A stretch of DNA of 45,659 nucleotides, from positions 1 to 45,659 of the forward strand of contig JYFJ02003159.1 of the NCBI GenBank assembly GCA_000934665.2, in the 5' to 3' direction. The first letter of the stretch is position 1. Every line of letters begins with the position of its first letter. Positions 22,128 through 26,466 of the stretch are shown here, piece by piece. Source of the DNA: Catajapyx aquilonaris (lineage: Eukaryota). The translations under genes were made by a program, and so were the position numbers. The notes under the pieces are model-generated. The model saw only the letters and a list, made by a program, of their open reading frames with translations. It had not been told where the DNA came from and did not search any database.

Positions 22128-25100
22128 TCAGGGTTTATCTTTATGTTGCGATCCCATTATCTTCATTTCCATTGCTTCCACACTTGCAGGATCTGTTCTC
22201 CGTGATGACATGAGGCAGTACCCGTCTGGTGACACCGGTGTCACGTTGGCGTATCCTGGAGGAGGTTGGGCTGTAGCTGCATCAGGTTGTAAGTATCCTG
22301 AAGTAGGTCTACTGCAGGAAGGTTGCACCTCCAGGTATCTCTGCTCTGGCTCGTCCCTCGTCTCACCCGGGGTCAGGTAAAACTGCAACGATCATTTCAC
22401 GCAAAGTGACCGAACATACCCAGTTTTGAGCTTTAAAAATTATGTGAAAATTCATAAAGTGACACAAACCTTCTCTACCCTCTCCTCCATCAAAGAACAT
22501 ATTTTACTCTCCAAGTGAGAAAAGGTGGGTCTTTCTTCCGGTTGGGTTTTCCAGCAATCTGTCATAAGTTGGTACCTACAAGAGAAACCCATCATTAAAA
22601 ACGAGACTGTCAAAATCCAGAGAAAAGGCAATTCCACTGATACGAAATCTGCCCGATAAGCGTACAAGATGATACAACAATCAGATAATATTATAATTGA
22701 CAGCCAAAATGGAAAGCATTATTAAAATCGTGTTTAGCCTGATATCATGGTTATTTGATGATTTTTGACAATCATTGTCAATGGAGATAAAGGGTCCTGC
22801 AATAATATTGCAATACAACACAATATTGGGACTATGTTCCTTGCTGACTTGTAACGTAAGCTCACACTTACACAGAAAAGGGCTGCAATTTAGGTTTTGA
22901 CATCCGGTAGCCATCCAGTAGTCCTCGGTACACATCTCTAATGTTGATTCCTGGTATGAAAATGAGCAATAATTGTGAACGTTCGAAATGCACGGTCAGA
23001 AAAACTCTAATGTGACTATTTGTTTGCAAAATCTATCAATTCTGACTCATACACTGAATAATACCTGGATATGGATCCTCCCCGAGAGAGAATATTTCCC
23101 AGAGCAGGACTCCGTACGACCAGACATCGGACATGGTGGAGAATGTCCTGTCCCTGATTGATTCGATCGCCATCCATTTGACCGGAAGAAGCCCTCCTCC
23201 TTCACCCTTCTTCTTCTTCTTCTTGTAGTAATACTCCTCTCGGGCCAGTCCAAAATCGCAGATCTTGACCACATTGTTGGAGCACAGAAGGACGTTTCTT
23301 GCAGCCAGATCGCGATGGACCACCTGCAGCATTATTGGATGTGGGGTTAACTCCATTCGACCATTGCGACCTATGGGTGTGCGTACCATTTTTGACCCGA
23401 GATGACCCATTCCTCTGGCAACCTGGAGTGACCATGAGACCAGGTGTGTGGTGGTGGTCCTTCCTTCCAGGTCCAGATGGACATCTCCTCTTCTGTCGAT
23501 CATCCCCGTGATTGGGTCCATCTCGTCCACGTAGTCCTCCCTCCTCCGTCTCAGGACCTGCAGGATGTTGCCGTACTTGCAGTACTCCACTAGGACCAGG
23601 AGGGTACCTTCATGGTCGGATAAAGATGACCCCCATCAGTGGCCCAGAGAAGCTACACCAACTCACCGCTTCGGAGGTTCCTGGTGCAGGCTCCAAGGAG
23701 GCTGACCACGTTCAGATGCTTCCCAACGTGCGCCATCATTTTCATCTCGTCAATCAAACTCTTCAGCTCCTGTACGGATGCTGGAGGCTTCACTGTCTTG
23801 GCCGCCACCTTCACCGCACCGTCACTTCCGTCGATTCCGACAGCCTCAGCCTCGTACACCACGCCAAACGCACCGGATCCCAGCTTCTTACCTGACATTG
23901 TTGGATGTATATACGAGTCAGATTCATACTCAAATCCTGAATATTGTTGTCCGGATTCTTATTACCAAGTTTGACCCTGTGTCGATTAAACTCCCATTTT
24001 GGGTCGTAGTACAGGTTCTCTGGCTGGTCATTTATGGGCAAGTCTGGTTCTATCCTATTCTCGTCTCCATGCACCAATTCCAGGTCATAAGCCAGTTCTC
24101 TCAATTGTTTCTGTGTTGAAATGGACATAAGGAGAGAAAATTATTCAAATGTGGCGAATTTATATAGTAGTGGTTTCTTCTGCTGTGAATGAGAAAAGGT
24201 TTGGTATTGTTGCAATAAATATCCTTACCCTCTGAATATACACGTAACGGCACAGAAAAATTCCCAGGGCAGCTAACAAGAAGGCAATTACTGCCACTGT
24301 CACAAGCACTATCGCCAAATTCCTAGTAGATCTTCCGGAATCTGTGATGTGAAATTAAAAGCCGTGTCATTTCTGCAAAATTCAACAATTCTGTTTTTCT
24401 TCAAAATATAAATTACCATATCCTGTGAGCTGGACGTTCACAAAAGCCTCGGCTTGACCTGCCTGGTTGGTTGCCTTGCACGTGTATTTCCCAACATCGG
24501 TCCTTGCCACAGGGTGTATCCTAAGCACAGCTCCAGTCATATTTAGCTTCTCCTCTTTCATCATCTGCAATATTTGCAATATTGTTAGTGGTGCAACCAA
24601 GAATGGTCCCAGACATAATCAGCTGACCTCTCCACTGATGGTCCTAAACCAAGAAATGTCCGGTTCCAGCCATCCTTCTGCCTGGCAGTCCAGCTCCAGG
24701 ACTGATCCGGGTTCAACTTCTGTGACACCTCCGTTCAATTGAGTGGAAACAATGCGAGGAGGGGATTCTTCTGTTAATATAATATAAATTGCAGTTAAAA
24801 CCTCAATTATTGGAATGACAGTAACTTTTCTTAAAGAACTGCATCCAACTACGGTTCAACTTTATTACCTTTTGAGCCCATCTTGCAGACAAATTGCCAG
24901 TGCCCAGCGCATCCCACGTCATTCCACTTCCCATTGTTGCGGTACATTACGGCGCAGTTTTCGGCCTCCAAGAAGTTGGGTTCTCTTGCGTTCCAGTTGA
25001 TGAAGTCGGCTGGAGAACCGTCTGTCCAATGCCACTCAATGGCCAGCTCTATTCTGAGCATCTTCAGACCAATGAAGGCATCATTCGGTATATATTCTGA

Positions 25101-26466
25101 ACACAAAGGATTCGAGAAAAAAAAAATTACTATCCAAATTCAGAAGGTGAAACTGTGGAATGAAATCGAGTTGGAATGATCTGCAAAACGATCAGAGTTG
25201 CATTTGACTGGATTTCGAATGTTTGAAAGAAACCTTCGTCTGCAATTGGTTTTTGTACTCTAGTTCAACTCTTTTTATACGGCACAATCATACTTGTGAC
25301 GAAATCCTGCTCTACTTGGCTGTGTACCGACGCAAGACCCGCATTTTCATTCATGTCTTGACATGTGCTTATGGCCCTCTCCCATGTTGTGGCATAGGAG
25401 GAAAAGTAGTAACACACACGATTGTTGAACATCCATCCACTAGGGCATTCACCTGTAAGCAGCATGATAAAAGTTTATTGCCGTTTATGTTACAATAAAT
25501 TAAAATGTCCTGCTCATGGTGCGTTTCATAATGATCAGACCAAACTTCTACCACATGTAATACGTACTGCTATTCGACTTGAAGCTACAGACAAAATGGA
25601 GCCTTTTGGAACACTTCACATTGTTCCACTTGCCCTTCCACACCTCTTCTTCCGGAGTTGTGTACACCGAAACGCATTCTTCAGCTTCCGGATAGTTTGG
25701 TTCTCCTTCCTGCCAATTGGTGTAGTTGGACTGAGACTTGTCTATCCAACACCAATTGCCATTCATACACTTGTTGAATCCGATCCAACCATGGTCGGAC
25801 ATAAGGTCTGGCAGACATGATAAACTCAGACATTAAATTCAATAATATTATTGCAAAGTTTAAAAAGCGCACTTTTTAAAAACTGCGTTTCTTCTTCATT
25901 CTCGACGCTGATCAAGTCCGCTATTCTGTTCTTCTCTTTGCAAACTCGTCGAGCATCGAACCAGTTGGCACTATTGGAGACAAACTGGTAGCAAAACTCT
26001 CCGTGTCCTGTCCAACCTTCAAGGCAGCAGTCTCTGCCACACTCTGCGAAATATTCAAGTAAATAAAATAATAAAGCTTCACACTGGATTACAATGGTTC
26101 ATGTATACTGTACAGTACGGAAAAACAAATCTAAATTTCAACCATAATCAGAAACATTTCACAATTTTTAAGTCATTTCACTTGTAACGGGATTCAATAT
26201 TTTCATGAGAGCGTTGAGCACATTTCATTACTTTGACATGGCGAGTCATAGCATATAATTCTGTTTTTTGCGATCTCCTTACAACTGAACTGCTCATTTT
26301 GTGTGCTAATATTATTTTATACACTATAAATAATGCGGTATTAATAGAATAACATTGCCATACAGGCATTGTAAACCTTCCTCCATTAATGTAAAACATG
26401 ATTAAAACTTTATACTGTACCTGCCAAAATCCAAGCCAAGAAGACAAGTATCTTCATGTACTTCAT
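22128..26466 (-). CDS. Chimeric receptor tyrosine kinase: signal peptide, 2 C-type lectin domains, 1 Ig, TM, PVR/VEGFR-type kinase
   Basis: Signal exon (MKY)[12 protein letters not shown] 26466-26421. CTLD1 26043-~25567 (CLEGW..CY..W..A..C..WIG..EPN..WNN..C..FVC). CTLD2 ~25452-24869 (CPSGW..FIG..EPN..WND..FVC). A phase-1 intron 24771-24868 leads to the Ig exon (LELDC..W..DVGKYTC). [25 protein letters not shown]. Kinase motifs [38 protein letters not shown]. Stop at 22128. Confidence 0.85.

Follow-up and report, generated by a model that had tools for sequence, protein, structure and literature searches.

Animal receptor tyrosine kinases (RTKs) normally sense protein growth factors, and animal C-type lectin receptors normally recruit a tyrosine kinase in trans, namely Syk through ITAM. 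In vertebrates, Dectin-1, Mincle and DC-SIGN are myeloid C-type lectin receptors that signal through Syk, and their EPN-type C-type lectin domains (CTLDs) link the recognition of glycans to tyrosine-kinase signalling once the receptors cluster. The lectin-RTK gene described here would share this coupling but has its kinase on the same polypeptide, rather than recruiting it in trans via ITAM or hemITAM. Such an arrangement in cis is known from the plant lectin receptor kinases (LecRLKs), including C-type members (PMC7758398, PMC7293193), which combine a lectin ectodomain, one transmembrane helix and a kinase on one chain and act in immunity. However, these are Ser/Thr kinases of the RLK/Pelle type, have no kinase homology to the lectin-RTK and are of independent origin. 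The animal precedent offered in the original prediction is Hydra Sweet Tooth (Reidling, Miller & Steele 2000), an RTK described as having a C-type lectin-like ectodomain and presented as lineage-specific (PMC3531485, PMC4026697). As an RTK with a lectin-like ectodomain the precedent stands, but it is less close than supposed: its repeats are described as ‘SWT’ domains, a Hydra family found also in secreted cuticle proteins (PMC3531485), and by this description are set apart from the canonical Pfam Lectin_C domains with EPN/WND of the lectin-RTK. Sweet Tooth also belongs to a different phylum and is of independent origin, and no retained Ig is reported for it in these sources. Among unicellular holozoans, the C-type lectin domain (CLECT) is listed with the domains combined with tyrosine kinases in Suga et al. 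(PMC4342544), so that the CTLD-tyrosine kinase combination has arisen before, although in unrelated lineages and kinase families.

The window analysed is a stretch of 45,659 nucleotides from contig JYFJ02003159.1 of Catajapyx aquilonaris, and the lectin-RTK gene, its neighbour and their features lie on its minus strand. Joining exons by coordinates yields a 15-exon open gene at 26466-22128 (845 codons, a 2538-nt frame) with an ATG at 26466 and a stop codon ending at 22128; all 14 introns are GT-AG and measure 59-377 nt. According to Pfam matches and the translation, the encoded protein starts with a signal peptide and a pair of C-type lectin domains, followed by a single Ig, a transmembrane helix (TM), a juxtamembrane segment, a tyrosine kinase and a tail, reproducing the anatomy originally claimed, which included an own signal-peptide exon. 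Exon 1 (26421..26466), read directly from the gene model, supplies the ATG together with a hydrophobic signal peptide of 15 residues and ends in phase 1. Upstream of it lies an in-frame ATG at 26508, which would give a longer N-terminal region if used.

The two lectin domains are each divided between two exons that begin and end in phase 1. The N-terminal half of CTLD1, with a long-form CxxGW...C start, is translated from exon 2 (25873..26043) and finds a weak UL45 (C-type-lectin-like) match of 16.3 bits, and the C-terminal half in exon 3 (25568..25807) carries WIGF, EPN, EEC, WNN and the final Cys (Lectin_C 38.9 bits, 1.6e-09). Similarly, exon 4 (25294..25452) encodes the N-terminal half of CTLD2 (Lectin_C 18.3 bits, 0.0041, below cut-off) and exon 5 (24869..25096) its C-terminal half with FIGL, EPN, ENC and WND (Lectin_C 39.3 bits, 1.2e-09), the reading frame staying open up to the donor. 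Pfam was run on single-exon translations with a Lectin_C (PF00059) cut-off of 22.6 bits, which exons 3 and 5 both exceed; the low scores of exons 2 and 4 are expected, as each carries half a domain. In translation both CTLDs have all four core cysteines, a WIGL-type motif and the extra N-terminal Cys pair of the long form, and the cysteine and WIGx positions agree with alignments to solved CTLDs.

The motifs attributed earlier to the two domains, EPN...WNN in CTLD1 and EPN...WND in CTLD2, are read from the translation. Ca2+ site 2 of CTLD2 has EPN, E-N-C and WND all in place, and that of CTLD1 has EPN, E-E-C and WNN and is only partly canonical because the last Asp is replaced by Asn. Exon 3 aligns to mannose-receptor-family CTLDs in the PDB, including the EPN...WND CTLD of MRC2, the PDB matches of exon 5 include MBP-C (4.6e-09), and the closest CTLDs of solved structure are those of the mannose-receptor/PLA2R/DEC-205 family. 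In these alignments the site-2 residues of the two domains fall opposite the EPN and WND of mannose-receptor-family CTLDs. CTLDs of this family bind sugars and also proteins, protein-binding CTLDs usually lose the full EPN-type Ca2+/sugar site, and in invertebrates EPN is a less reliable predictor of sugar type. Both domains are predicted from these motifs to bind mannose/GlcNAc/glucose-type glycans in a Ca2+-dependent manner.

Downstream of the lectin exons, exons 6 and 7 (24770-24628, 24564-24417) together encode one Ig domain (Pfam I-set/Ig_3; I-set 35.9 bits for exon 7). Direct reading of the translation places a transmembrane helix and then a basic stop-transfer stretch in exon 8 (24229..24341), and a juxtamembrane segment with a YDPKWEF motif is translated from exon 9 (23966..24110). 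The tyrosine kinase domain occupies exons 10-14 (23891-23667, 23607-23387, 23323-23065, 22950-22872, 22575-22470), where PK_Tyr_Ser-Thr scores 52.1 bits (7.5e-14) on exon 10 and 150.9 bits (5.2e-44) on exons 11-12. The motifs in its translation run from GxGx through DFG to a YYY activation loop with a poly-Lys/Gly insert, the kinase insert is short, and the features of an active tyrosine kinase are all present, with a GxGxxG loop, a VAxK lysine, an alpha-C Glu and an activation-loop Tyr among them. Exon 15 (22128..22382) supplies the C-terminal tail, with GYANV (YxN) and DGYCLM (YxxM), and the stop; the first AATAAA past it, a candidate poly(A) signal, lies at 21873..21878, about 250 nt downstream. 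The agreement of structural features at 26466-22128 is far beyond chance.

The kinase belongs to the PVR/VEGFR/PDGFR class: most of those named among the 120 listed relatives are VEGFR1-like or PVR, at no more than 56% identity, and the rows of highest bit score in that list hold a few other kinases at 34-46% identity. The best relatives listed are arthropod PVR/VEGFR-like proteins (insects, ticks, springtails and horseshoe crabs; 50-56% identity), and seven arthropod PVR/VEGFR members map onto exons 9-14 by tblastn. The lectin-RTK shares with them a homologous kinase, juxtamembrane segment (YDPKWEF) and last Ig, but has two CTLDs where they have Ig1-6. The standard 5-7 Ig ectodomain of the class is absent, with one Ig (exons 6-7) against seven in the neighbouring parent gene. 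Furthermore, both local genes differ from the arthropod PVR/VEGFR RTKs by the poly-Lys/Gly insert in the activation loop, and the long kinase insert, about 110 residues in a dragonfly homologue (P0008, 900-1012), has a counterpart of about 15-25 residues in each, some 15 codons in the tblastn comparison. The lectin-RTK gene is therefore a derivative of the PVR/VEGFR/PDGFR class and not a standard member. Since the ligand-binding part of VEGFR lies within Ig1-6, and these are replaced by two CTLDs, a Pvf/VEGF ligand would not be expected.

The parent stands in tandem with its derivative. Its shared part (27235..29675) comprises the Ig7, TM, juxtamembrane, kinase and tail exons, and its Ig1-Ig6 exons (29720..32814), recognized from ORF translations and weak Pfam Ig matches, are without counterpart in the derivative; the ORF translations contain Ig F-strand motifs of the DxGxYxC type, seven in number, including a degenerate one. 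Between the parent stop, with its AATAAA (27235-27230), and the derivative ATG downstream there are about 765 nt. Exons 6-15 match 29675-27235 of this neighbour exon for exon and in the same phases, bearing out the claim that these exons are shared. Nucleotide identity to the parent is 89% for exon 6 (to 29675-29533), about 80% for exon 7 (to 29453-29312), 86% for exon 9 and 67% for exon 8 (to 29128-29016), the last with 48% amino-acid identity; the exon 15 tail is about 42% identical in amino acids, its YxN and YxxM motifs being common to both. That the retained Ig is the membrane-proximal one is supported by its mapping, since in PVR/VEGFR proteins of arthropods it corresponds to the last Ig. 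In what we take to be the VEGFR Ig7 contact motif, L/IxRphi-xxxD/ExG, the Arg position is Pro in both parent and derivative, so that a dimer contact through the retained Ig, as put forward originally, is tentative. A search of 21000-27235 for relics of Ig1-6 returned chance-level matches only, the lowest tblastn E being 0.014 (15 residues) and the blastn matches not exceeding 21 nt.

The lectin and Ig exons are separated by an intron of 98 nt (24771..24868; donor AAG/GTAATA, acceptor ...TTAACAG/A), which is phase 1, as had been claimed, one codon base being left on the lectin exon. The Ig6/Ig7 intron of the parent (29733-29676) is also phase 1, and the matching phases at the two positions support the exon shuffling between phase-1 introns that the original prediction invoked. 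The gene would then have originated as a partial tandem copy of the 7-Ig PVR/VEGFR-like neighbour, beginning in the Ig6/Ig7 intron and continuing to the 3′ end, which gained a 5′ module of a signal-peptide exon and four phase-1/phase-1 exons encoding two CTLDs in place of Ig1-6.

Parent and derivative were also described as ‘still side by side’. Tandem adjacency is confirmed, but a recent age is not: the non-converted exons differ by a dS of about 0.65 and the introns are unalignable (about 30-40% identity), so that the duplication is, judged by this divergence, an old one. Only in the kinase core do the copies look young, an effect of gene conversion over a tract of ~850 nt (23065..23915) that pairs with parent 28705-27866. 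Within it exons 10-12 are 97-99% identical and introns 10-11 83-90%, and dS is 0.06 against 0.65 outside. Stretches of 850 nt at 97-99% identity can mislead short-read assemblers, and an assembly artefact, in which lectin and RTK exons are misjoined or the kinase copies swapped, has to be weighed. We regard it as very improbable. At 24.8 kb, where CTLD and Ig meet, the sequence is unique and some 900 nt removed from the near-identical tract, the window contains no N, and on either side of the tract the divergence from the parent is equally old. If the copies had been swapped through the tract, this would exchange 3′ ends only, leaving the continuity from CTLD through Ig, TM and juxtamembrane segment to kinase unaffected.

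Whether the locus makes one product or two turns on the same junction. The intron contains an AATAAA (24866-24861) and an in-frame TAG (24851-24849) less than 20 nt from the donor, and this part of the window could also be read in annotation as a lectin gene followed by a truncated kinase. Under that reading a secreted two-CTLD lectin would end in the 98-nt intron and the Ig-TM-kinase exons would be a 5′-truncated remnant that was never joined to it; a caution of the same kind comes from lancelets, where a predicted Lectin_C chimera was reportedly disproved by ESTs (PMC4967905). However, the hexamer coincides with +3 to +8 of a donor that is itself strong, and about one AATAAA is expected by chance (an estimate) in roughly 1.8 kb of AT-rich introns in which two were seen. 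In a leave-one-out PWM ranking of splice-site strength the junction donor is second best of 24 and the acceptor sixth lowest of 24. About 70 nt separate the putative poly(A) site from the Ig exon, too short a stretch to accommodate a promoter together with an intron and an exon for a signal peptide.

The shared exons themselves speak against a decaying remnant: all ten, with their splice sites, are intact. Pairwise dN/dS is 0.21 for Ig7a, 0.38 for Ig7b, 0.30 for the TM exon, 0.20 for the juxtamembrane exon and 0.19 for exons 13 and 14, all below the floor of 0.5 expected if one copy drifted neutrally; being pairwise and lacking an outgroup, these values do not assign the constraint to one branch, and they are blurred by gene conversion and small per-exon counts. 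Neutral simulations with 15% substitutions kept an open frame in 0.16% of cases for the shared exons and 0.2% for the lectin exons, and with 28% substitutions in 0 of 5000, so that a neutral remnant at a dS of 0.65 would remain open in at most 0.16%. The dN/dS of 0.19-0.38 in most non-converted exons, taken with the rarity of open frames in the simulations, indicates purifying selection and, by this reasoning, a translated product. Furthermore, no in-frame ATG occurs within the open frame upstream of the Ig exon, the sole ATG in the 98-nt intron is out of frame and soon followed by a stop, and the only signal-peptide exon between the parent stop and the Ig exon is that at 26466-26421. The RTK half, with neither a start codon nor a signal peptide of its own, would need the lectin-side exons, and from this and the selection on its exons we infer that these are spliced to the Ig exon. 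A fused transcript and protein are in our judgement probable, and the separation into two products improbable, though less so than an artefact. Intron retention or early polyadenylation could still possibly yield a secreted two-CTLD lectin as an isoform, as the AATAAA and in-frame stop sit just inside the junction intron.

For the fused gene we favour, on balance, a real and selectively maintained chimeric RTK with the origin proposed above and activated by glycan clustering, which is the best explanation available and has somewhat better than even prospects. The mature protein would be a type I membrane receptor of the form CTLD(EPN/WNN)-CTLD(EPN/WND)-Ig-TM-kinase-tail. Its CTLDs would bind mannose/GlcNAc/glucose-type glycans with Ca2+, multivalent ligands would cluster the receptor, and the kinases brought together in this way would phosphorylate one another in trans, at the YYY of the activation loop and at tyrosines in the tail. 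The YxN and YxxM motifs may then recruit Grb2/Drk-type and PI3K-type adaptors, producing a PVR-like output without Pvf/VEGF. Sugar binding, activation by clustering and a role in immunity are thus suggested rather than observed, and if the fusion is real we lean, modestly, towards a glycan-triggered signalling receptor.

A different use of the same protein is unlikely, though it is the strongest of the competing accounts: the receptor might bind an endogenous glycoprotein or protein, as is common among CTLDs, or serve chiefly as a partner or modulator of the parent by forming a heterodimer through Ig7, TM and kinase core. The sequence gives no indication that the ligand is microbial, the solved CTLDs nearest to these bind proteins as well as sugars, the tail docking motifs are common to both paralogues, and Ig7a (89% nucleotide identity) and the converted kinase core (97-99%) are close to the parent. 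However, both CTLDs retain the full EPN-type Ca2+/sugar site (with WNN in CTLD1), amino-acid identities of 48% in the TM and 42% in the tail are unlike what selection for heterodimer compatibility would leave, and gene conversion needs no functional explanation. Carried further, the glycan-clustering reading would make the gene an animal counterpart of the plant lectin receptor kinases, encoding a bilaterian pattern-recognition receptor through which arrays of microbial glycans directly trigger Ras/PI3K signalling of the growth-factor type in immune cells. Gene conversion would maintain the match of its kinase core to that of the parent, and a soluble lectin may serve as an sFlt-1-like decoy; we offer this extension tentatively, as rather less probable than the basic mechanism.

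The architecture is rare, as originally proposed: a CTLD was found in 0 of the 120 nearest RTK relatives and a kinase in 0 of the 150 nearest CTLD relatives. The latter figure comes from an exhaustive HMMER search in which CTLD2 exon 5, as the query, gave 3734 hits at E<=1e-3 and the best 150 of 3734 were checked for a kinase; these are long proteins carrying multiple CTLDs, with their rank set by summed score, making this a weak test of architecture. A word-indexed search of the protein collection with the kinase gave no match above 56% identity among those listed, which suggests that the collection contains neither the lectin-RTK nor any close orthologue of it. The same kind of search with exon 5 against longer proteins returned four candidates, none of them scored. 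A metagenome locus from the exon 5 scan (L001) proved on re-check to be a chance match of 13 residues without a kinase. No description of a CTLD fused to a PVR/VEGFR-type kinase was found in the literature covered, which includes few subscription journals. The gene is likely to be a real and rare chimeric RTK, the CTLD-kinase combination itself having arisen before in other lineages.

If this is true, canonical sugar-binding CTLDs on a growth-factor-receptor kinase would constitute a direct glycan-to-phosphotyrosine switch, and confirmation would provide a simple system for asking whether mannan or bacterial clustering activates PVR-type signalling. The locus would also be an unusually clean example of the birth of a receptor, with parent adjoining derivative, an intronic breakpoint, matching phases, symmetrical phase-1 modules and later conversion of the kinase core. 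To the original prediction the present analysis adds the old age of the duplication, the gene-conversion tract in the kinase core, the selection on the shared exons and the dependence of the RTK half on the lectin-side exons. Elsewhere in the window, an ORF of 522 aa with LRRs lies at 43381-44946.

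On the minus strand, read from 26700 to 22000 with exons joined by coordinates, the lectin receptor tyrosine kinase (lectin-RTK) is a complete gene of 15 exons, 2538 coding bases and 845 codons, running from an ATG at 26466 to a stop codon that ends at 22128. Its 14 introns, of 59 to 377 nt, are without exception of the GT...AG type. In direct translation, exon 1 encodes a hydrophobic leader of 15 residues, each of the two C-type lectin domains is encoded by two exons (CTLD1 by exons 2 and 3, CTLD2 by exons 4 and 5), the membrane helix comprises 23 hydrophobic residues followed by basic residues, and the kinase, with YYY in its activation loop, contains [21 protein letters not shown]. 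Pfam, run on single-exon translations with a Lectin_C cut-off of 22.6 bits, identified Lectin_C in exon 3 (1.6e-09, 38.9 bits) and exon 5 (1.2e-09, 39.3 bits), I-set/Ig_3 in exons 6 and 7 (35.9 bits for exon 7) and PK_Tyr_Ser-Thr in exon 10 (52.1 bits) and in exons 11-12 translated together with the in-frame 63-nt intron between them (150.9 bits). Exon 4 gave a weaker Lectin_C match under the cut-off (18.3 bits) and exon 2 only a weak match to the C-type-lectin-like UL45 (16.3 bits), while the single-exon translations of the transmembrane, juxtamembrane and tail exons had no Pfam match. The gene anatomy of the original prediction, two CTLDs followed by Ig, transmembrane and kinase segments, is thereby confirmed.

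Both CTLDs retain the four core cysteines, the WIGx motif and the long-form N-terminal Cys pair. Their sugar-site motifs read EPN...EEC...WNN in CTLD1 and EPN...ENC...WND in CTLD2, again as predicted. The solved structures nearest to the C-terminal halves of both domains by phmmer are mannose-receptor-family CTLDs, MBP-C, CD23 and related domains, and the EPN and WN(D/N) of both align with the same positions in an EPN...WND domain of MRC2.

The prediction that the Ig-to-tail exons are shared with the adjacent seven-Ig PVR/VEGFR-like gene, the presumed parent, holds: a tblastn search of the window with the joined protein recovered a second copy of this part at 29676-27240, but no second copy of the CTLD exons. 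The Ig-like exons of the parent extend upstream to about 32.8 kb, with seven DxGxYxC-type F-strand motifs legible, one of them degenerate, and weak Pfam Ig matches on several. Seven arthropod PVR/VEGFR-like proteins map to both copies, the retained Ig being their last before the membrane. Ig1-6 have left no detectable relic in 21000-27235, and nucleotide similarity between derivative and parent reaches no further upstream than about 20 nt before the Ig exon, so the breakpoint lies in the Ig6/Ig7 intron. That intron in the parent (29733-29676) is phase 1, as is the 98-nt junction intron of the derivative (24868-24771), with the same split codon, G|AA, in both. Each of exons 1-5 ends in phase 1 and exons 2-5 also begin in it, being symmetrical (1/1), so that skipping of a CTLD exon pair would keep the frame; symmetrical exons of the same phase are a classical property of shuffled modules. 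With matching phases and this breakpoint, the proposed origin of lectin-RTK by exon shuffling onto a partial PVR-type duplicate is well supported. At 296 nt, intron 13 of the derivative (22576-22871, minus strand) is longer than its 57-nt counterpart in the parent and therefore carries an insertion of about 240 nt.

Divergence between the two copies is uneven. Exons 10-12, the kinase core, are 97-99% identical and both introns between them 83-90%; the other duplicated exons are 63-89% identical, with introns that at about 30-40% are unalignable. By the Nei-Gojobori method, dS is 0.06 in exons 10-12 (234 codons), against 0.65, with dN 0.23, over the remaining 322 aligned codons. The homogenised tract takes in introns and is bounded on all sides by old, diverged sequence, a pattern that we read, from sequence comparison, as a probable old duplication, after which gene conversion recently acted on some 850 nt over the kinase core (about 23915-23065 against 28705-27866). 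The first exon of the retained Ig (Ig7a, 24770-24660) is also unusually similar between the paralogues, at 92-94%. In the non-converted exons, pairwise dN/dS is 0.21 for exon 6 (Ig7a), 0.38 for exon 7 (Ig7b), 0.30 for exon 8 (transmembrane), 0.20 for exon 9 (juxtamembrane), 0.19 for each of the kinase exons 13 and 14 and 0.56 for exon 15 (tail), values based on small counts, saturated in some exons and obtained without an outgroup. If one copy drifts neutrally the pairwise ratio cannot drop under 0.5, and because most exons lie below this floor both copies appear to be constrained in most exons. In simulated neutral copies with point substitutions alone, the open frame was kept at 15% changed sites in 0.16% of copies for the shared non-converted exons and 0.2% for the lectin exons, and at 28% changed sites in 0/5000.

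Whether the lectin and kinase halves form one product turns on the junction intron. CTLD2 ends in AAG before the donor GTAATA (24869/24868), with one split-codon base on the lectin exon, and the acceptor TTAACAG is followed by the Ig exon from 24770. In a leave-one-out weight matrix built on the 24 introns defined in both genes, a small set whose paralogous introns are not independent, the donor ranks second best and the acceptor sixth lowest, which makes both ordinary. Just inside the donor lies an AATAAA (24866-24861), followed by a TAG in frame (24851-24849), and retention of the intron or premature polyadenylation may give a secreted two-CTLD lectin or soluble isoform. However, the hexamer occupies positions +3 to +8 of the donor, which is a strong one, and its occurring twice in the AT-rich introns, about 1.8 kb in all, is by our estimate near chance expectation. 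A separate lectin does have a precedent in lancelets, where Banyai and Patthy (PMC4967905) describe a predicted Lectin_C-fn2 chimera that ESTs resolved into two genes, the upstream one a lectin gene ending in a separate stop and the downstream one starting from a separate signal peptide. The main difference is that the downstream part of lectin-RTK has no leader of its own. The Ig-exon open frame has no Met upstream of that exon, the one ATG in the junction intron is out of frame with a stop soon after, and the sole leader-like exon between the parent stop/poly(A) hexamer (27235) and the Ig exon is that at 26466-26421, which the CTLD exons require as well. A type I receptor requires a start codon and leader, and the constrained Ig exon must be translated; SP-CTLD-CTLD-Ig-TM-kinase is therefore the default product of canonical splicing. 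The two halves most likely belong together, and we consider the predicted fused protein to be, with good probability, real. The searched protein collections yielded no protein of Catajapyx aquilonaris or a close species.

In its kinase, lectin-RTK is PVR/VEGFR-like: of the 120 relatives listed, those that carry a name are mostly arthropod VEGFR1-like/PVR proteins, at 50-56% identity. The kinase insert is very short, with about 15-25 residues in both local genes (23450-23500 and 28245-28290) against about 110 in arthropod PVR/VEGFR homologues; aligned to a dragonfly protein, about 15 codons stand opposite its 110 or so residues. Directly after YYY both also carry an activation-loop insert, unusual for this class, of AAG-repeat-encoded poly-Lys followed by GEGGG (minus strand; six Lys at 23215-23232 in the derivative, five at 28010-28024 in the parent). 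The tails are about 42% identical, with GYANV and DGY(C/F)LM kept in both; YxN is the Grb2-type SH2 consensus and YxxM that of PI3K p85, and these motifs may serve as such sites. The suggestion that the retained Ig provides VEGFR-type Ig7 receptor contacts is uncertain: the Arg of the contact motif is Pro in both copies.

The architecture appears rare. PF00059 was recorded in 0/120 of the listed kinase relatives, local phmmer found CTLD matches in 0/120 of the same proteins, and 0/150 of the best CTLD relatives of an exhaustive search had kinase matches (positive control 120/120), the last test being weak because summed-score ranking favours long multi-CTLD proteins. A full-text literature search, which most subscription journals lie outside, turned up no account of CTLDs joined to a PVR/VEGFR-type kinase. 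Precedents for lectin-type ectodomains on tyrosine kinases do exist, and they are remote. One is Hydra Sweet Tooth, put forward as the precedent, but its repeats are described in PMC3531485 as 'SWT' domains of a Hydra family; CLECT is named among the domains of tyrosine-kinase families of unicellular holozoans in a figure legend of PMC4342544. Plant lectin receptor kinases, fused in cis but carrying Ser/Thr kinases, come closest in function, together with vertebrate myeloid CLRs, where the kinase, Syk, is recruited in trans. A pattern-recognition role for lectin-RTK is a reasonable, putative assignment; plausible alternatives are that it binds endogenous ligands or modulates the parent receptor.

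Directly downstream of lectin-RTK, at least four to five copies of a Mab-21/Mab-21_C gene, for a cGAS-like nucleotidyltransferase, stand in tandem on the minus strand (1231-1730, 5485-5865, 7464-8606, 13383-14542 and 19893-21031; Pfam Mab-21 1.3e-06 to 2.4e-09). The neighbourhood is of an immune type; in a eukaryote, however, lying side by side is no evidence that genes share a function. On the plus strand, one open frame of 522 aa (43381-44946) has weak LRR_4 matches, with no relative found in a word-indexed protein collection, and a long frame at 42110-42700 resembles by eye the post-pore region of a TRP-type channel but has no Pfam match. Two long frames of 376 and 258 aa at 34362-36625 (plus), the second with a weak sub-threshold Lig_chan match (E 0.0041), are possibly a divergent ionotropic-receptor-like gene, and the long frame at 37378-37983 (plus) has a weak Ig_2 match (E 0.0072).
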